Origin: Bacteroidota bacterium
GTDB taxonomy: Bacteria; Bacteroidota; Bacteroidia; Bacteroidales; GCA-2748055
Length of the DNA stretch: 64,000 nt
Direction: 5' to 3'
NCBI GenBank assembly: GCA_049325415.1
Contig: JBMOLL010000040.1
Span: 11,859-75,858 of the forward strand
Under the pieces are notes generated by a model. The model saw only the letters and a list, made by a program, of their open reading frames with translations, was not told the origin of the DNA and ran no database searches. Below are positions 19,112 to 43,485 of this stretch, piece after piece (the first letter of the stretch is position 1; every line of letters starts with the position of its first letter). The translations under genes were made by a program, and so were the position numbers.

Positions 19112-20269
19112 CTATTTCAGAAGATAGGCAGTAAAGACCCCGAGGTAGTTTCCCAGGGCATAACCGATGATACCGATGATCAGACCCGAGATTACCACCT
19201 CCTTGTTCTTGAGTGCGGCAGCCACCACCGGAACAAAGGGCGGCGACATGGAAAGTGCCACGGAAGTGATGATAAAGTGATCGGCATCGATCTTAAAGAT
19301 CTTCGACAGGAGCGCATGCAGCAACAGGGCTCCCACCACGGCCATCAGTATATAAATGGTGATGGCACCAACAACAGCCGAGGAACCCTTGCCGAACATT
19401 TCGCCCAGATCGGCCATGGAGGCTACAATCGTACTGAAGACAAGAATGAAGTACATCCCGGTCTGAAATGTCATCTTCAGTTTGTTGATCTTCGGCACCA
19501 GGGAAGCCAGGATACCCAGCGTGGTGATGGTGAGGATGGCAGCTACAGTGGCGTAATCCTGTCCGACTACAAACGTCAGACCAATACCTATTCCGGTGAT
19601 TACCAACGCAATACCAAAACCTTTCAGTATGCTTAAAAAATTCTCCCTTCTGAAAAAGCCCTTGTAGGATTCAAATTCCCTGACCTGCTGATCGATCTCC
19701 TCATCGCTCATCGTATTCGAAGAGCGGTATGGCTTCATAAAAAGGAGGAAAAAACGCTGTCCGATGGTCAGAAGAAAGAGGAGAACGAAGGCACCGACCA
19801 CCAGGTCGATGGTATGGGTTAGAATATAGATATCGGGGTCGACGCCCAGTGCCTTGTTGATGGCTGCAAGGTTGGGCGTTCCGCCGGAATATACGCCGAT
19901 GAGCATTCCGGATACCTTCCAGGCATCCGGGATAACATCCTTAAATAAATAAAAGCCGGCCACAACCATTACAAAAACGGAAACCAGCCCCAGGATCATG
20001 GAAAAAGCCGTAAGCCATGCCATCCGGAACCATTTCCGGATATCCTCCGAGAACAGGAGCAGCGGTATACCAAGAAGAATGGTCACGCTGGTAAGATTAT
20101 CCTGCAGACTTTCCAGTCCTTCGGGAAGAACATCAATATTCCCGACAACCAGACCCACGGCATAGCAGATCACAATCGAACCGATCCTGTTGACAACGGT
20201 AAAACGGGTACCCAGGAAGAGCACAAGTGCCGGAAACAGGAAATAGAAGAGAATTACAGCAACGGTCAT
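19112..20269 (-). CDS. Polytopic membrane protein (DUF819-like)
   Basis: 385 aa and about 10-12 hydrophobic segments. The overall pattern matches DUF819 integral membrane proteins (recognition from memory). Confidence 0.6.
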   Translation of the reverse strand: MTVAVILFYFLFPALVLFLGTRFTVVNRIGSIVICYAVGLVVGNIDVLPEGLESLQDNLTSVTILLGIPLLLFSEDIRKWFRMAWLTAFSMILGLVSVFVMVVAGFYLFKDVIPDAWKVSGMLIGVYSGGTPNLAAINKALGVDPDIYILTHTIDLVVGAFVLLFLLTIGQRFFLLFMKPYRSSNTMSDEEIDQQVREFESYKGFFRRENFLSILKGFGIALVITGIGIGLTFVVGQDYATVAAILTITTLGILASLVPKINKLKMTFQTGMYFILVFSTIVASMADLGEMFGKGSSAVVGAITIYILMAVVGALLLHALLSKIFKIDADHFIITSVALSMSPPFVPVVAAALKNKEVVISGLIIGIIGYALGNYLGVFTAYLLK

Positions 20270-20323
20270 AGGGGTAGGTGTTAGTTGCTGCTAAAGTATA
20301 AAAAGATTTTTAATTGGGGACGG

Positions 20324-20372
20324 GAGACGCGAGATGCGAAATACGAGACGCGAGACGCGAGATGCGAAACGC
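20324..20372. repeat. Heptanucleotide tandem array (GAGAYGC-type), 7 units
   Basis: Read directly: gagacgc gagatgc gaaatac gagacgc gagacgc gagatgc gaaacgc. Confidence 0.95.
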
Positions 20373-20379
20373 GGGAAGA

Positions 20380-20512
20380 GTGAGGAGTGTGGGGTGAGGA
20401 GTGAGAAGTGAGAAGTGAGAAGTGAGAAGTGAGAAGTGAGGAGTGAGGAGTGAGAAGTGAGAAGTGAGGAGTGAGAAGTGAGAAGTGAGAAGTGAGGAGT
20501 GACGAGTGATGA
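20380..20512. repeat. Heptanucleotide tandem array (GTGAGRA), 19 units, ~86% purine on the plus strand
   Basis: Read directly, in unbroken 7-nt register: gtgagga gtgtggg gtgagga (gtgagaa)x5 (gtgagga)x2 (gtgagaa)x2 gtgagga (gtgagaa)x3 gtgagga gtgacga gtgatga. Confidence 0.95.
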
Positions 20513-20571
20513 GAGAGGCGGGTTATCCCGAAAAACAACAAATCTTTATTTGGTAGTTTTTCGAGGTTCCT

Positions 20572-20606
20572 CGGGTTTCTGATAAAGCGCAGCTTTAGGA
20601 AACCCG
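20572..20606. other. Two-tier perfect hairpin between the heptamer arrays
   Basis: CGGGTTTC-tga-TAAAGC-gca-GCTTTA-g-GAAACCCG (8-bp outer plus 6-bp inner stem). There is no adjacent T-run on either strand, so it is not a canonical terminator. Confidence 0.6.
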
Positions 20607-20640
20607 GGACGGGTCGCGGGTGACGCGAGACGCGAGACGC
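20606..20640. repeat. Short second GAGACGC-type heptamer array (about 5 units, 2 degenerate)
   Basis: gggacgg gtcgcgg gtgacgc gagacgc gagacgc. Confidence 0.85.
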
Positions 20641-20646
20641 GGGGGG

Positions 20647-20837
20647 CGGGTTATGAGTGAGATTCCTGAGTGGTCCCTGAGCCAGTCGAAGGGCCAGCTA
20701 TCGGTAAATTGTAAAGGCCCTCCTTCGCTAAGTCCTTCGCCAAAGGCTTCGGCCGTCGGCGAATGCTTCGGAGGACGGAGGTTACGGGTTATCTCCTGAG
20801 CGGTCCCTGTCCCGATAGCCATCGGGATCGAAGGGCC
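20647..20837. repeat. Two diverged copies of a ~50-bp extragenic unit (CGGGTTAT...TCCTGAGYGGTCCCTG...CGAAGGGCC) with internal hairpins
   Basis: Copies at 20647-20695 and 20785-20837. The second carries the hairpin TCCCGAT-agcc-ATCGGGA (20810-20827). Between them lies CCTTCGCCAAAGGCTTCGG (20734-20752), which recurs inverted at 39341-39359 (18/19). Confidence 0.8.
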
Positions 20838-20914
20838 TGCCATCAGTAAATAGTAATGTGGAGAGGAAGTAACACGGGTCTCTAATAAGCTTTGATTAAG
20901 CAGTTGATACACTC

Positions 20915-20962
20915 AACCTCAATCTTAACCTCAACCTTAACCTCAACCTTAACCTCAATTAC
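20915..20962. repeat. Hexamer/dodecamer tandem repeat (AACCTC AACCTT)x4, ending 4 nt from the fabI stop codon
   Basis: aacctc aatctt aacctc aacctt aacctc aacctt aacctc aattac. Confidence 0.9.
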
Positions 20963-20966
20963 TCTT

Positions 20967-21797
20967 TTACTTGCATTCCTCGAAACTCTTCTCGTACTGC
21001 TGGATAGCGCGCAGGCTCATGCCCATGCTGGAAAATCCTCCGTCATGGTAGAGATTCTGCATGGTCACCTTGCGGGTCAGGTCGGAGAAAAGAGTGATAC
21101 AGTAATCGGCACAGTCGGCTGCAGAGGCATTTCCCAGTGGCGACATCCGTTCCGAAAAGTCTTCCAGCTTATCAAAGCCCTTGATACCGCTTCCTGCGGT
21201 GGTAAGCGTCGGTGACTGGGAAACGGTATTAATGCGGATCCTTTTCTCCCTCCCATAGATATAACCGAAGCTCCGGGCAATGGATTCAAGAATGGCCTTG
21301 GCATCCGCCATATCGTTATAACCCACAAAGGTACGCTGGGCCGCCACATAGGACAGGGCCACCACCGAACCCCATTCGCTGATCGCATCCAGCCTTCGGG
21401 CCGTGCTCAGCACTTTATGCAGGGAAAAGGCTGAAATATCAAGTGTCTTGTGATAGTATTCGTAATTCAGTTCATCATAGGAAATGCCTTTTCTGACATT
21501 TGGCGACATCCCGATGGAATGGAGCACAAAATCGATCTTTCCGCCCAGAATTTCCATGGATTTGGTAAAGAGGTTTTCCAGATCTTCCAGAGATGTGGCA
21601 TCGGCGGTAATCACCTGCGAATGGCATTTCTTTGCCAGTTCGTTGATTTCGCCCATCCTGACTGCCACAGGGGCATTGGTCAGCACGAATTCGGCACCTT
21701 CTTCCCAGGCTCTTTCAGCCACTTTCCACGCGATCGACTGCTCATTGAGTGCGCCGAAAATAATTCCTTTCTTTCCTTTTAACAGATTATAGCTCAT
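20967..21797 (-). CDS. fabI: Enoyl-[acyl-carrier-protein] reductase (NADH), FabI
   Basis: 276 aa. N-terminal LLKGKKGIIFGALNEQSIAW (a FabI-type Rossmann start). SDR fold with a SYVAAQR...Y..MADAK catalytic region. Confidence 0.9.
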   Translation of the reverse strand: MSYNLLKGKKGIIFGALNEQSIAWKVAERAWEEGAEFVLTNAPVAVRMGEINELAKKCHSQVITADATSLEDLENLFTKSMEILGGKIDFVLHSIGMSPNVRKGISYDELNYEYYHKTLDISAFSLHKVLSTARRLDAISEWGSVVALSYVAAQRTFVGYNDMADAKAILESIARSFGYIYGREKRIRINTVSQSPTLTTAGSGIKGFDKLEDFSERMSPLGNASAADCADYCITLFSDLTRKVTMQNLYHDGGFSSMGMSLRAIQQYEKSFEECK

Positions 21798-21880: not shown

Positions 21881-23542
21881 TCAGTTTTGCTTGATTTTCA
21901 GCAGTTCGCGGGCATTGGAAAGTGCGGCATCGGTGATCTTCTCCCCCGAAACCATTTTGGCGATCTCCACCACTCTCTCTTCCCCGCTGAGTTTCCTGAT
22001 CCGGGTGTGAGTGGCATTGTCGCTGTCTTCCTTGAATACCAGGTAATGGTCGGCTCCCTTTGCCGCAACCTGCGGCAGATGGGTGATCGCGATAAGTTGC
22101 CGTCCGCCGGCCATGCGCTGCATGATCTGGCCAACCTTATCGGCAATTTCCCCGCTGACGCCCGTATCGATTTCGTCGAGGATCAGGGTGGGCAGACCGG
22201 TGAAATCGGAGAGCAGTGATTTCAGTGAAAGCATCAGGCGGGATATTTCACCGCCGGAGGCAACATTGCCGATCTCTTCCAGTTCCGACTGCTTATTAGC
22301 TGAAAATAAGAACCTTACCTGGTCGCTGCCATAGGGATCAAAAATACCGGTATGATCCACCCGTACCTCAAAGCGGGCATTCGGGATGCCCAGCTGACGG
22401 AGCAGGGCCGCCACCTCCTTTTCAACCGTTTTACCGGCCTCCGTGCGCTTTTTGTGCATCGAAGCGGCCAGGCTGCCCATGCCTGATAGCAGTCCGGCAA
22501 TCTCTTTTTCCAGCCGTGCTGTTTTCTCATCCGACAGGGTGATGTCGCTTATGCGGCGGTCGAGCTCGTCCCTCAGGGCAATCAGCTCTTCCACCGTCTT
22601 CAGACGGTGTTTTTGCAGCAGCCTGTATAACAGGTCGATACGCTGTCGGACAATCTCCTGCCTTTCGGGCGAGAACTCCACCTTTCCGGCCAGGAGTTCC
22701 ATTTCCGTGGCGGCATCCTTGATATCGATCATAGCCGCTTCAAGTCGTTCAGCCAGCGCCCTGGCCGGATGATAATAGGCCAGGATCTTCTGGAGACGGA
22801 TATGTGTGTCTTTGAGCTGTCTGACCGTACCGGTTTCATCACCGTTCAGCGTCGCGGCTGATTCGCCCAGTGCCTGGCTGATTTCCCCGGCATGTCCGAG
22901 TACCTCGGCTTCCTCTTCCAGTTCTTCCATCTCGCCTTCCCTGAGCCTGGCGTCCTTCAGTTCGGTAAACTGGAACTCCAGGAACTCCAGTTCCTTGCGC
23001 GCACTTTCAAGCGAGGCCCTGAATGTCTCCAGTTCGGCGCTCTTTACCCTGTATTCCCCGTATATGGAACGGTATTCGGCCAGTTCGCTCCCGAGGCGCC
23101 CCACAAAATCGACCACCTCCATCTGGTAGACATGATCGTTCAGGCGGAGGTTCTGGTGCTGGGAATGGATGTCGACCAGTTGTGTCCCAAGCTCCTTCAT
23201 CTGGTTCAGGTTCACCGGCGTATCATTGATAAAGGCCCTCGACTTGCCGTTGGGTGTGATTTCCCGTCGCATGATGGTGACCGGCTGGAAATCGAGGTCG
23301 TTTTCCTCGAAAAATGTCCGGAAAGCCTGTCCCAGCCTGAAGGTACCCTCGACTGAACATTTCTCGTCAAGCTGTTTGAGTACCGTGGTATCGGCGCGCT
23401 GACCGAGGATCAGCGACAGTGCCCCCAGCAGGATGGATTTTCCCGCGCCGGTTTCCCCGGTAATCGTGGAGAATCCGTCGGAAAAACTGATCTCCAGTTC
23501 TTCGATCAATGCATAATTCCGGATATGGAGATGTTCGATCAT
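21881..23542 (-). CDS. recN: DNA repair protein RecN
   Basis: 553 aa. N-terminus MIEHLHIRNYALIEELEISF...ITGETGAGKSILLGAL (Walker A), a long coiled-coil middle and a C-terminal SGGEISRLMLSLK...LILDEIDTGVSG. Confidence 0.95.
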   Translation of the reverse strand: MIEHLHIRNYALIEELEISFSDGFSTITGETGAGKSILLGALSLILGQRADTTVLKQLDEKCSVEGTFRLGQAFRTFFEENDLDFQPVTIMRREITPNGKSRAFINDTPVNLNQMKELGTQLVDIHSQHQNLRLNDHVYQMEVVDFVGRLGSELAEYRSIYGEYRVKSAELETFRASLESARKELEFLEFQFTELKDARLREGEMEELEEEAEVLGHAGEISQALGESAATLNGDETGTVRQLKDTHIRLQKILAYYHPARALAERLEAAMIDIKDAATEMELLAGKVEFSPERQEIVRQRIDLLYRLLQKHRLKTVEELIALRDELDRRISDITLSDEKTARLEKEIAGLLSGMGSLAASMHKKRTEAGKTVEKEVAALLRQLGIPNARFEVRVDHTGIFDPYGSDQVRFLFSANKQSELEEIGNVASGGEISRLMLSLKSLLSDFTGLPTLILDEIDTGVSGEIADKVGQIMQRMAGGRQLIAITHLPQVAAKGADHYLVFKEDSDNATHTRIRKLSGEERVVEIAKMVSGEKITDAALSNARELLKIKQN

Positions 23543-39031: not shown

Positions 39032-39110
39032 CTATATCAGGTTTATAGTTTAAAAATCTATTCTTTCCCTAACAAACCGTTCAGCCCATCCTGCTGCCCT
39101 TATCCTGCCT

Positions 39111-39217
39111 CCCCTCTCTCACCTCTATCACCTTTCTCACCTTTCTCACCTTTCTCACTTTTCTCACTCCTCACTCCTCACTCATCACTCATCCCGCGTC
39201 TCGCGTCTCGCATCTCG
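39111..39217. repeat. Composite 9-mer/7-mer array, inverse orientation of the 20324-20512 module
   Basis: (tcacctttc)x3 tcacttttc (tcactcc)x2 (tcactca)x2 tcccgcg tctcgcg tctcgca tctcg, then A9. The reverse complement reads [GAGAYGC]n then [GTGAKGA]n, the same order as at 20.3 kb. Confidence 0.95.
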
Positions 39218-39298
39218 AAAAAAAAAGACACAAAGGTGTAACGCTAAGGTTCAAAGACTCAAAGGCGCTAAACATCGCATAAAAGGTAAACTCCCCCG

Positions 39299-39450
39299 TC
39301 ACTCCTCACTCATCACTCATCACTCCTCTCGTTCCACCCGCCGAAGCCTCTGGCGAAGGCAGGCGTCTCCCGTCTCCCATCTCGCGTTTCGCACAACTCG
39401 TAACCCGTAACCCGTAACCCGCCACTCCTCACTCCTCACTCCTCACTCCC
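39299..39450. repeat. Second mosaic of heptamer arrays (TCACTCM, CGTCTCC, CGTAACC, CCTCACT) around a 19-mer shared with locus 20734-20752
   Basis: tcactcc tcactca tcactca tcactcc ... ccgaagcctctggcgaagg ... cgtctcc cgtctcc catctcg cgtttcg ... (cgtaacc)x3 ... (cctcact)x3. It ends at the stop codon of gene 39451-41145. Confidence 0.9.
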
Positions 39451-41145
39451 CTACCTGTACCTGTACAACTTCAGGAACTGTATCCCCGTCTCACCGGCCG
39501 GGATCCTCAGGTGCCGTCCCTGATGGCTCTGGTCTCCGTTCAACCGGCGGACCGGCATCCATATCCCGTTTTCCATTGTTCCCTCATCAATTTTTTCAAT
39601 GCCTGTAAGGTATCCGTCCTGATCCGGAGGAAAGGTGAGAACGATCCCATCGCCGGCAACGAAATATTTTCCCTCCCCGGTACAAATGATCAGGCCTCCT
39701 TTAACTGGCCAGGTTTCTTCAGCAGCTCCAGCGTCCCATCCGAGGGTATAATCGTGCTTCGCGATTATGGTAAAACCACCAAGGACGATCGTATCTGCCG
39801 GATGCTCCCTGTCGAACAGGAAACCTCTCATGGTGCCTTTGCCCTGATTTTCAAGGATCAGGGGAGCCAGCTGTGAAAGAACCGAATAAGTATTGGTCAT
39901 GGGTTCCTTCACGAGATCGGAAGTCGATTCAATGAAAAAAGGGCTGAAACCCAGGGCATCATAATTCCCGATAGAGAAGAAAGCCTTTGGTCCGCAGGCA
40001 GTTTCATAGCCGCCCGGGATCTGTTCGTAACGGACTTCCGGAAGAAAAAGGGCATTCCCGTCGCGCTTGTACAAACCGGCCCAGTGCCGGAAATCGGCAA
40101 AATATATATCGGGAGCCAGCAGATCAACCGAAGGAGCCGCTACCTTCCATATATCCATCAGGTGAGGCAAGGGACCGGCGGAAGGATATTGCCCGGGAAG
40201 CCAGCCAGGACGGTTCAGCGCGGCATTCACATAGGCCGGGATCGGATAAACAGCTTTCCCTGCCGCAGTGATCTGTTCCATATAACGACCAAAATACCAG
40301 GCCATGAAGATCTCTTCCGTAGCCAGATCGTCGCCGAAAACCTCCTTCCATGAGCCCCTTGTCCGGGAGCCGTGATCCCTCCATTTTTCCCTGATTTCAG
40401 GAGCATAGAGGGTCGACGAAGATTGGATATAACGGATCAGCTCTCCGGGTACTTCATTGTTATAGGCGCTGTTGGCTGCCGGGCTGTGGTCTCTTGCATC
40501 GGGCAGCATACCGATCTCATTTTCAACCTGCATCATGATCACCGTATGTTCGTTCCCGTCAAACTCCCTGATAAACTTCATCAAAGCCGTATAGGCCTGT
40601 TTATCGGCGACGAGATTTCTGAGTTCGAAGGGACTCAGGATCTCCACTGCTTTACCGTTACGGTCACAGGCCCTGGGGAAACGCCTGTAATCCTCTTTTA
40701 CCCAGCCCGGAGCATAGCACGACATGCTATTCTTCCAGCTACCGAACCATAACAGGACCAGTTTCATCTGGTTCTGACGGGCATCAACGATCAGATCCCT
40801 GACCAGGTTAAAGTCGAATCTCCCCTCTTCCGGCTCAATCAGTTCCCAATAGACCGGAGCCAGGACTGTATTCAGCCTGTTTTGCCGCAACACCGGCCAC
40901 AGCTCTTTCATGTATTCCGTGGAGGACGAACTGGAGTTCCCCAGCTCACCGCCCAGCATCAGAAAGGGCTTGCCACCGACAATGAGCCGCTGGGTATTCC
41001 CCCGTACTTCAAGGTGCGGGGGAGCTGCCTGCTTCTGGGCAGAAAGAATACCAGGAGAGGTTTGAAATAAAAGGATGAACAGGAGGCATAACCCGGTATG
41101 GCACAGGCGGGTTGAGGGGAATTCGCTTTTGAATGTTGTTTTCAT
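39451..41145 (-). CDS. Secreted GH35/GH42-like TIM-barrel glycoside hydrolase (DUF5597-type C-terminus)
   Basis: 564 aa with a signal peptide. [15 protein letters not shown] and [10 protein letters not shown] (acid/base Glu context), as in clan GH-A beta-galactosidase-like enzymes. Confidence 0.7.
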
Positions 41146-42439: not shown

Positions 42440-42695
42440 AAACTGTATACGAATTTATGAAATAATCCTGATCTACTGCATGTCAGAAAATTAATCTCAA
42501 ATCAGACAATTTTCTAATGCAATGCAATAGAAAATGAAGAGACGAAAAAACTCTAATGCATAAAATGGGTTAATTGGAAATACCCCACTTTTTATTAAAA
42601 TCTAAAAGAAAGCCAAAGCTGTATAATTACAACTGTATATGAATCTGACCATGAAAACGTGGAAATAAATCATATAGAAGTACATGAAATCCATA

Positions 42696-42869
42696 GTCAG
42701 AAACCCGACAGACAGTCCTTCGACTCGTAACTCGATAAACTCGTTACTTCGCTCTCCGCGTGCCGCCGTAGCTTCAGCGGAGGGGCAGGAACCTGTACAC
42801 AAAATTCTTCGTCAGAAACCCGACATGCAATCCTTCGACTCGTAACTCGATAAACTCGTTACTTCGCTC
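42696..42869. repeat. Two copies of a 59-bp direct repeat (period 115 bp)
   Basis: GTCAGAAACCCGACA..CA.TCCTTCGACTCGTAACTCGATAAACTCGTTACTTCGCTC at 42696-42754 and 42811-42869. The two differ at about 3 positions. Confidence 0.9.
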
Positions 42870-42942
42870 AGGAACCGACGCATAGAGTTAGGGGTGGTAA
42901 ACCTCGACAGGCTCGGTTTACCATCGCTGGATCGAGCTGGTT

Positions 42943-43113
42943 GGTGAGCGAAGTCGAACCACTGTCGAGATCCCTTTCCTGATTTTTATAACACCGGTTC
43001 CTGAGCGCCGTGGTGAGCTTGTCGAACCACAAGTCGAAGGACCTCTTCATCCTGTGAGCATAGCCTTTCATTAGGGCGAACAATGGTGAGTTTGCCGAAC
43101 CACAAGCCGAAGG
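42943..43113. repeat. Three copies of a ~29-bp unit GGTGAGYKWGYCGAACCAC(AAGYCGAAGGA), period ~70 bp
   Basis: Copies at 42943-42970, 43012-43041 and 43085-43113. Also a 13-bp perfect inverted repeat CGCTCAGGAACCG / CGGTTCCTGAGCG (42865-42877 / 42995-43007) and the hairpin GGTAAACC-n11-GGTTTACC (42896-42922). Confidence 0.85.
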
Positions 43114-43485
43114 ATTGAAGAAAAACAATCGTCAGTCTAATAATGTGTTGGGTGATTAAATTATATACTTGAATTATAAAAAAATGATACAAAAATCTAT
43201 TGAGAATGATAAGACCATCCAAACTGATTCAAGTAGTTCGCCTTCCCGAGTTATCGGGAAACGCAATTTCTTCGGCTCTTAGTGAATAATTTGGGATAAA
43301 CCCATTTTATGCATCAAAAAAGTCACAATGTATAAAAAACCAGAGTCTGGACACACCTCACTTTTCCGGTACGTTTAAATATCTATCTCTTCAGCCTGGG
43401 ACTCAGCCAATAATCCTGCTCTATCAGTCTTTATTATTTGGGTAAGTCCAAAGAACCTTAAATATTTGCCCGGCTCCCTTCTCAG

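Follow-up and report, generated by a model that had tools for sequence, protein, structure and literature searches.

What is the long array of seven-nucleotide repeats that lies ahead of a DUF819 family gene in an uncultured Bacteroidota lineage: a control element of this gene, or a repeat that has expanded in a spacer permissive for it? The question reaches beyond a single locus as, in many bacteria, no long simple repeat is commoner than the heptamer array, which breaks short-read assemblies and inflates intergenic spacers. The origin and any function of such arrays have been in question since 1990. The array was analyzed in a window of 64,000 nucleotides, the term used here for the whole stretch of DNA under study, and all coordinates refer to this window. 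As first described, the array is situated upstream of the DUF819 start codon and downstream of fabI, occupying 55 to 243 bp before the DUF819 ATG (20269) and beginning 455 bp past the fabI stop (20967), with both genes on the minus strand. The features of this region are as follows.

19112..20269, minus strand: DUF819 family gene, downstream of the array.
20270..20323, minus strand: conserved 54-nt region, putative promoter and leader, between the array and the DUF819 ATG; 4 of 54 positions mismatched against a sister strain.
20324..20372, plus strand: GAGAYGC-type block of seven units, GCRTCTC on the transcribed minus strand; also present in the sister strain (L243) with unit substitutions.
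20373..20379, plus strand: transitional unit GGGAAGA, in the register common to both blocks; the sister strain has an extra GCATCTC unit at the same position.
20380..20512, plus strand: GTGAGRA-type block of 19 units, TYCTCAC and G-free on the transcribed minus strand; unpaired in RNA and DNA folds.
20513..20526, plus strand: two decayed in-register units, GAGAGGC and GGGTTAT (family D5).
20527..20605, no strand assigned: non-repetitive A/T-rich segment with two hairpins.
20606..20662, plus strand: short version of the heptamer array, GGGACGG GTCGCGG GTGACGC GAGACGC GAGACGC GGGGGGC GGGTTAT GAGTGAG (families D2 and D5).
20664..20856, plus strand: two copies of a 130-142 bp module, TCCTGAGYGGTCCCTG ... 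TCGAAGGGCC.GC.ATC.GTAAAT.GTAA (families D6 and D7).
20912..20958, plus strand: (AACCTCAACCTT)x3.7 array, which reads AAGGTTGAGGTT on the sense (minus) strand, is G-rich and C-free there, and begins 9 nt past the fabI stop.
20967..21797, minus strand: fabI (enoyl-ACP reductase), upstream of the spacer.
21881..23542, minus strand: recN, on the same strand as fabI and DUF819.

Read in steps of seven nucleotides from 20324, the letters form a single continuous period-7 register of about 27 units that extends to 20519. Tandem Repeats Finder reported period 7 in both parts of it: the stretch 20319-20373 scored 61 with 7.9 copies, and the stretch 20378-20518 scored 177 with 20.1 copies. The first block runs, from 20324, GAGACGC GAGATGC GAAATAC GAGACGC GAGACGC GAGATGC GAAACGC, so that five of the seven units match the consensus GAGAYGC exactly, and an exact match to GTGAGRA was found for 16 of the 19 units of the second block, the off-consensus units being GTGTGGG, GTGACGA and GTGATGA. 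The core of the array is pure and its edges are degenerate. Since the two blocks keep a common register and are alike at four of the seven unit positions, they constitute one array with two sub-families rather than two arrays. The preliminary description of back-to-back (GAGAYGC)7-(GTGAGRA)19 arrays therefore holds for its coordinates, its 7-nt periodicity and its unbroken register but not for the number of arrays, as a transitional unit joins two sub-families of one. No period-7 array was found in block-shuffled controls of the 1.33 Mb surveyed below, which places the array at 20324-20512 far above chance. Two finer regularities found no support: the GAA and GGA variants, said to alternate non-randomly, form 7 runs where a random order would give 8.5, a difference that is not significant by permutation (P = 0.29, with no higher-order lag), and the equation of three units, or 21 bp, with two helical turns is arithmetic only. 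L001, an independent contig built from short reads of this strain, agrees with the window through all of the GAGAYGC block and for 33 nt into the GTGAGRA block, where it ends; because it stops inside the second block, the count of 19 units comes from the window assembly only.

The array is not the only repeat between the two genes. The spacer measures 697 bp and is filled with repeats nearly throughout, in the order, from fabI to DUF819, of the AAGGTTGAGGTT array, the two modules, the short heptamer array, the A/T-rich segment with its hairpins, the long array and a 54-nt unique segment. Each copy of the 130-142 bp module holds a hairpin-like core, CCCTGAGC..GTCGAAGGG or TCCCGATAGCCATCGGGA. 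A hexamer or dodecamer array past fabI was observed in three sequences (window 20912-20958, L002 10843-10960 and L003 884-937); in the sister strain contig L003, whose FabI protein is identical, AGGATA and AGGATG units stand where the window has AGGTTA and AGGTTG. The same-strain short-read contig L002 leaves this hexamer array into a different sequence, which includes heptamer-like YAGCTTG runs and is absent from the window. Either the strain varies here, or the assembly may have been joined wrongly across a repeat with a further copy at another locus.

The preliminary exclusion of a coding repeat, a CRISPR array and a terminator is supported. The array is no credible coding repeat, for its period of 7 does not fit a triplet frame, and both minus-strand open reading frames of the spacer, of 86 aa (20281-20541) and 105 aa (20595-20912), have no Pfam match. 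Nor is it a CRISPR array, given that its 7-nt units are contiguous and lack spacers, whereas CRISPR arrays consist of 23-50 nt repeats with unique spacers. It is also not a terminator hairpin, as the GTGAGRA block is fully unpaired. No match to a known RNA family of Rfam 15 was found anywhere in the window at the gathering score, and a search of this spacer and of the second repeat-bearing spacer described below at E <= 1 returned chance-level matches to eukaryotic snoRNAs and miRNAs only. The accession numbers of the DUF819 protein (MFZ5939874) and of FabI (MFZ5939876) skip one number between them, which suggests that the public annotation likely places a hypothetical protein inside the spacer; such a protein would be spurious.

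Comparison with relatives bears on the age of this arrangement. The closest FabI among species representatives has 87% identity and belongs to an uncultured Bacteroidetes MAG, followed by those of Bacteroidia, Marinilabiliales and Bacteroidales MAGs and then of Marinifilum. The order fabI-DUF819 is kept in about ten related genomes, where the spacers are 60-270 bp long or hold an extra small gene, and arrays were found in none of them; in the closest relative the spacer is about 58 bp. From the short, array-free spacers of these syntenic relatives it follows that about 640 extra bp are specific to the present lineage, and an array so recent in the lineage is not a conserved control element of DUF819. 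In the closest relative, a MAG assembled from long reads, DUF819 (L004 10893-12000) matches only in pieces and looks frameshifted, probably due to homopolymer assembly errors.

Logan short-read contigs were available for the same strain (SRR32167786) and for a sister strain (SRR23004074). Those of the same strain are identical to the window in their overlaps and have ends inside the arrays. The sister strain is separated from the present one by a dS of 0.13 in fabI and 0.33 in DUF819 (dN 0.018 in the latter), and its GCRTCTC block keeps the register of the window, with 9 of 56 positions different and the block boundary shifted. As the array occurs in both strains, it is older than their split, and it has persisted since then (dS 0.13-0.33). 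Judged from these substitutions, its units drift at roughly the synonymous rate and thus nearly neutrally. The 54-nt proximal segment has an identical 37-nt core in the two strains, and this segment, not the array, is the constrained element. The locus is a clean case in an uncultured Bacteroidota lineage in that its relatives supply the ancestral 60-bp spacer and its sister strain supplies a near-neutral rate for the units.

We consider it probable that the array is a slippage-born, nearly neutral and lineage-specific heptanucleotide microsatellite patchwork in a permissive spacer, and we infer both its origin by slippage and its absence of function. According to this reading, the array would belong to a patchwork of short-unit repeats of about 640 bp that has inflated an ancestrally short fabI-DUF819 spacer. 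A seed heptamer would have expanded through strand slippage or unequal exchange, point mutations would have given rise to the sub-families GAGAYGC and GTGAGRA, which differ at three of seven positions, and each of these would then have been amplified, while the ends of the array would be decaying on both sides. The array would hold no conserved regulatory information for DUF819, with the conserved 54-nt promoter or leader segment lying between the two. Probable incidental effects would be that strains differ in unit number, that the spacer is lengthened and that short-read assemblies break at the array.

The extra 640 bp could instead be the cargo or the remnant of a mobile element of the MITE or REP type that settled between fabI and DUF819. 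They do hold the duplicated 130-142 bp modules and a 20-nt piece common to the second locus described below. However, not one inverted pair of at least 12 nt occurs in 20270-20966, so terminal inverted repeats are lacking, and no target duplication was seen. The modules were found in 0 of 240 fetched loci, and the arrays are simple tandem units. We regard an origin from a mobile element as extremely improbable.

The position of the array relative to the promoter of DUF819 bears on any regulatory role. The sequence TACTTTAG lies 22-29 nt before the DUF819 ATG and is one mismatch away from the Bacteroidetes -7 box TAnnTTTG, a motif for which the upstream regions of the window's other genes are enriched. 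The 54-nt proximal segment is therefore a putative DUF819 promoter, and if it serves as such the array would lie upstream of about -40. A sigma-70 promoter scan was also carried out, a type of scan that is not informative for Bacteroidota.

This placement matters for the proposal that the number of units tunes the expression of DUF819 as a contingency locus or rheostat, in the manner of the (ATCTTTC)n repeats of the Haemophilus influenzae HMW adhesins. In hmw1A, the repeat is located in the 5'-UTR of a surface adhesin gene and pairs with a downstream G-rich partner, and the resulting hairpin is cleaved by RNase III (PMC12721329). The present array resembles hmw1A and hmw2A in being a heptamer array with a G-free sense strand, of a unit class similar to ATCTTTC, that precedes a start codon and breaks short-read assemblies (PMC12721329), and its block boundary is unlike between strains. 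In contrast to hmw (PMC12721329), no G-rich segment lies between the array and the ATG, the fold of the 726-nt spacer contains no long hairpin, and the array is probably located upstream of the promoter, which makes a 5'-UTR placement improbable. DUF819 is neither a surface gene nor a contingency gene, many Bacteroidia have related arrays beside fabI and other housekeeping genes, and the array is missing in relatives. Tuning of this kind appears quite improbable here.

As RNA of the transcribed strand, the long array has the form (UYCUCAC)19(GCRUCUC)7, with 46% C and 6% G. Over the 189 nt, the sense strand contains 87 C, 66 U, 24 A and 12 G, including 61 YC dinucleotides, and it lacks start codons as well as stop codons in all three frames. 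The TYCTCAC block is fully unpaired in the predicted folds; when the 726-nt spacer is folded in its entirety, about 95 nt of this block remain unpaired, and the centroid structure leaves it without pairing. These properties correspond to the composition of a rut site, namely at least 80 nt of C-rich, G-poor and unstructured RNA that is presumably untranslated. The main rival to the microsatellite reading is an insulator at which Rho loads on the array in read-through RNA from fabI and terminates before DUF819, which would then depend on its own proximal promoter. Apart from base composition and folding, this is consistent with the finding that no site resembling an intrinsic terminator occurs on the minus strand downstream of fabI, and with the conserved promoter-like segment between the array and the ATG. 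Against it, the sense strand of the same units is G-rich at 39109-39450 and hence not rut-like, which argues against a general role; arrays that adjoin stop codons at other loci are likewise preferentially G-rich on the sense strand; and the relatives cope with 60-bp spacers. The array also differs from rut sites, which are not tandem repeats, in consisting of tandem units whose orientation is inconsistent between the two loci. A Rho-loading insulator is in our view unlikely, and any effect on Rho would perhaps be only incidental. Under the microsatellite reading, the tract (UYCUCAC)n would simply be tolerated in its present orientation because, being G-free, it offers no ATG, GTG or TTG start, no SD-like motif and no self-pairing.

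The unit families of the array recur in the window in a second assemblage of heptamers, which is located in the spacer 39032-39450.

39109..39450, plus strand: second assemblage, consisting of CTCACCTTT x6.6, CTCACTC x4, CGCGTCT x3.3, TCACTCA x3.9, CGTCTCC x3.4, AACCCGT x3.9 and CACTCCT x3.9.

This assemblage adjoins the stop codon of the gene 39451-41145 and contains the unit families of the first array in the opposite orientation. Its families are GTGAGGA, GTGATGA, GAGACGC and ACGGGTT, accompanied by the 9-mer GGTGAGAAA and by the 20-nt non-repeat piece common to both spacers, and it is flanked by minus-strand genes, a GH35/42-like gene and a DUF3788 gene. Two other loci had been claimed for the unit families; one of them, 20622-20641, lies in the same spacer as the array at a distance of 110 bp, and 39109-39450 is a separate intergenic region. 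The claim of a recurring, slippage-prone repeat class is supported by this second region. The GTGAGRA, GAGAYGC and ACGGGTT families are hence common to two spacers within 64 kb, and for the same few units to occur at both, local slippage alone is insufficient: exchange between loci, a shared seed or selection is needed. The 20-nt piece, at 20734-20753 inside a module, recurs inverted at 39340-39359, and the latter position is the exact break point of two short-read contigs of the same strain.

A regulatory role for the array at DUF819, which had also been suggested, is not supported by these observations, as relatives with the same synteny have short spacers free of arrays and the same units stand beside unrelated genes in the opposite orientation. 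The array could otherwise serve as a series of binding sites for a protein on DNA or RNA, or as a substrate for non-B DNA such as H-DNA, G-quadruplexes or phased bending. Its periodicity is regular, with three units making 21 bp, the same units occur at two spacers, and Csp-type proteins with an OB-fold can bind heptamer repeats (PMC4679880). We did not find the features of a non-B substrate proposed earlier: the GTGAGRA block is no mirror repeat, each of its units carries a T and it has only two G runs of at least three. H-DNA and G-quadruplexes found no support on the same grounds, since the reversed unit is no rotation of the unit, the purine content of 20380-20512 is 83.5% (about 86% had been given previously), and a G-quadruplex requires at least four such G runs. 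Furthermore, the units mutate at about the synonymous rate, both orientations occur, each related genome has different units, and GTGAGRA is no commoner than permuted control units. An array of binding sites or a non-B structure is very improbable on this evidence. Overall, the preliminary description got the structure right, and the functions that it suggested mostly find no support.

The extent to which such arrays are general was assessed with a census of 1.33 Mb, comprising 80 Bacteroidia loci around fabI and the window, in which tandem arrays were counted from about four copies upward. Nineteen arrays of period 7 were found, followed by nine of period 4 (seven in shuffled sequence), five of period 11, two each of periods 6, 8 and 12, one of period 9 and none of periods 5 and 10; among periods 5 to 12, only period 7 exceeds five arrays. 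The units are different in each related genome of this census. All 18 arrays examined in the related loci and the window (16 of them of period 7) are intergenic and several flank fabI, and in the window itself every period-7 array lies in a spacer although about 89% of the window is in open reading frames. Matches to (GTGAGRA)4 were found in more than 120 metagenome contigs, with 35-71% GC among the matches listed; none of these listed matches is from the same species, and only the arrays match. In a viral contig collection, (GTGAGRA)4 occurs at 19 loci compared to 4 and 13 loci for two permuted units of matched composition. GTGAGRA was rejected as a special unit, as permuted controls are similarly common, which indicates that it is one of many heptamers that form arrays.

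The array is a new case of a described class, the heptanucleotide long simple sequence repeats (SSRs), with units that are unpublished; a literature search for dimers of the present units (GTGAGRA and GAGAYGC) returned no bacterial paper. The earlier remark that no function is known to be described for it passes over several accounts of this class, namely heptamer long SSRs, the STRRs, the TAACTGA and related heptamer assemblages of Bacteroidetes, and the hmw repeats (ATCTTTC)n. The cyanobacterial STRR1-3 of Mazel et al. (1990) are reportedly a few genome-specific heptamers that are repeated in tandem at many intergenic sites. Their units are CCCCAGT, TTGGTCA and CAACAGT, and they are defined for heterocystous cyanobacteria. 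The present array likewise consists of tandem intergenic heptamers but belongs to a different phylum and has different units, which places it outside the STRRs in the strict sense.

As summarized in PMC4679880 and PMC4692102, the survey of Mrazek, Guo and Shah (2007) showed that the long SSRs of most prokaryotic genomes are heptanucleotides more often than anything else, and its authors suggested that they originate by polymerase slippage. In the same summaries (PMC4679880, PMC4692102), heptanucleotides are the commonest unit length among repeats of 5-11 nt and are distributed sporadically across phyla. Like the long SSRs characterized there (PMC4679880, PMC4692102), the present array has tandem 7-nt units, is longer than chance and is intergenic; its units run head to tail, and it is variable between strains and not conserved at the orthologous site. 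A closer counterpart was described by MacGregor (2015), who observed several heptamers side by side in Bacteroidetes spacers, short repeat-free spacers in the same neighbourhood of close relatives, and contigs that end inside the repeats (PMC4679880). The array shares with TAACTGA and the "assemblages of heptamer repeats" of Gramella, Aequorivita and Elizabethkingia (PMC4679880) its occurrence in Bacteroidota, the adjacency of several heptamers, the repeat-free relatives and the contig breaks. Unlike TAACTGA, which is usually found within a few nucleotides of start codons in one orientation (PMC4679880), it has other units, lies 55 nt from the start codon and belongs to a unit family that occurs in both orientations. 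Similarly, GGGAATC arrays vary strongly in length and sequence between Xanthomonas species (Rehm et al. 2015; PMC4692102). The GGGAATC and GGGGAYT repeats of Xanthomonas and Nostoc are intergenic heptamers that vary among close relatives, as the present array does, and sometimes form inverted pairs; their runs of three to four G make them capable of G-quadruplexes (PMC4692102), which GTGAGRA cannot form. Taken alone, the fabI-DUF819 array is an ordinary member of the class.

The orientation of such arrays relative to genes shows a polarity, which is a lead and not a result because the sample was chosen by one unit and the gene calls were crude. At loci of no more than 55% GC, arrays lying no more than 30 nt before a start codon have more C than G on the sense strand in 18 cases against 3, and arrays within 30 nt downstream of a stop codon have more G than C in 42 against 14. 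The sample comprised the FabI loci from L004 upward, metagenome and viral loci up to L239 and the window, with crude calls of open reading frames. At the Bacteroidia FabI loci, every array located 3-30 nt before a start has more C than G on the sense strand, and most contain few G or none. Where both flanking genes run in the same direction, arrays with a G-rich sense strand were found by the stop and those with a C-rich sense strand nearer the start in three data sets (P = 0.04, 0.01 and 0.11). Adjacent inverted pairs of arrays have the order 5'-G-rich ... C-rich-3' in 28 cases (20 loci) versus 2 (1 locus) among the loci L096-L233, for example at L103 (6048-6120 and 6302-6387), L138 (1184-1276) and L132 (7710-7784). 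As the order of G first and C last reads the same on both strands, this count is independent of gene calls. On the metagenome contig L103, an L30 gene that closely precedes L15 is flanked by a pair of perfect (GTGAGAA)4-loop-(TTCTCAC)4 hairpins. The polarity is kept in both spacers of the window, and in the fabI-DUF819 spacer the G-rich AAGGTTGAGGTT array lies at the stop and TYCTCAC near the start.

The simplest cause of this polarity is tolerance. G-free tracts, with neither start codons nor SD-like motifs, would be harmless before a start, whereas C-free, G-rich tracts, which hold TGA in three frames as well as GTG and GGAG, would be harmless only just past a stop. The regularities of position and orientation show at least purifying selection at the transcript level on such arrays. 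A stronger proposal is that intergenic heptamer arrays obey a polarity rule that neutral slippage does not predict and that reflects function as a widespread intergenic punctuation; we hold this to be unlikely. If the polarity is functional, the arrays might act as translation stops in all frames, as hairpins that never expose the C-rich Rho-loading arm, or as clean unstructured leaders. The polarity may be new. Should it be upheld in an unbiased census, it would be the first constraint of a general kind on the placement and orientation in which such arrays can persist and would provide a testable hypothesis.

Some further observations concern the rest of the window. The genes change from mostly minus strand to mostly plus strand near 45 kb, where the cumulative GC skew flattens. 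No DnaA-box cluster was found in the window, with 18 near-matches against 13.8 expected and these scattered, and a check of GC skew and DnaA boxes near 42-46 kb gave no positive sign of a replication origin. A gene-free region of 1046 bp (42440-43485), for which there was no Rfam or tRNA match, contains a direct repeat whose copies are about 115 bp apart (about 42699-42756 and 42814-42870). The same region has short ACTCGTA and ACTCGAT runs, related to the ACCCGTA units of 39394-39421, and several REP-like hairpins of the type GGTGAGCTTGTCGAACCAC.
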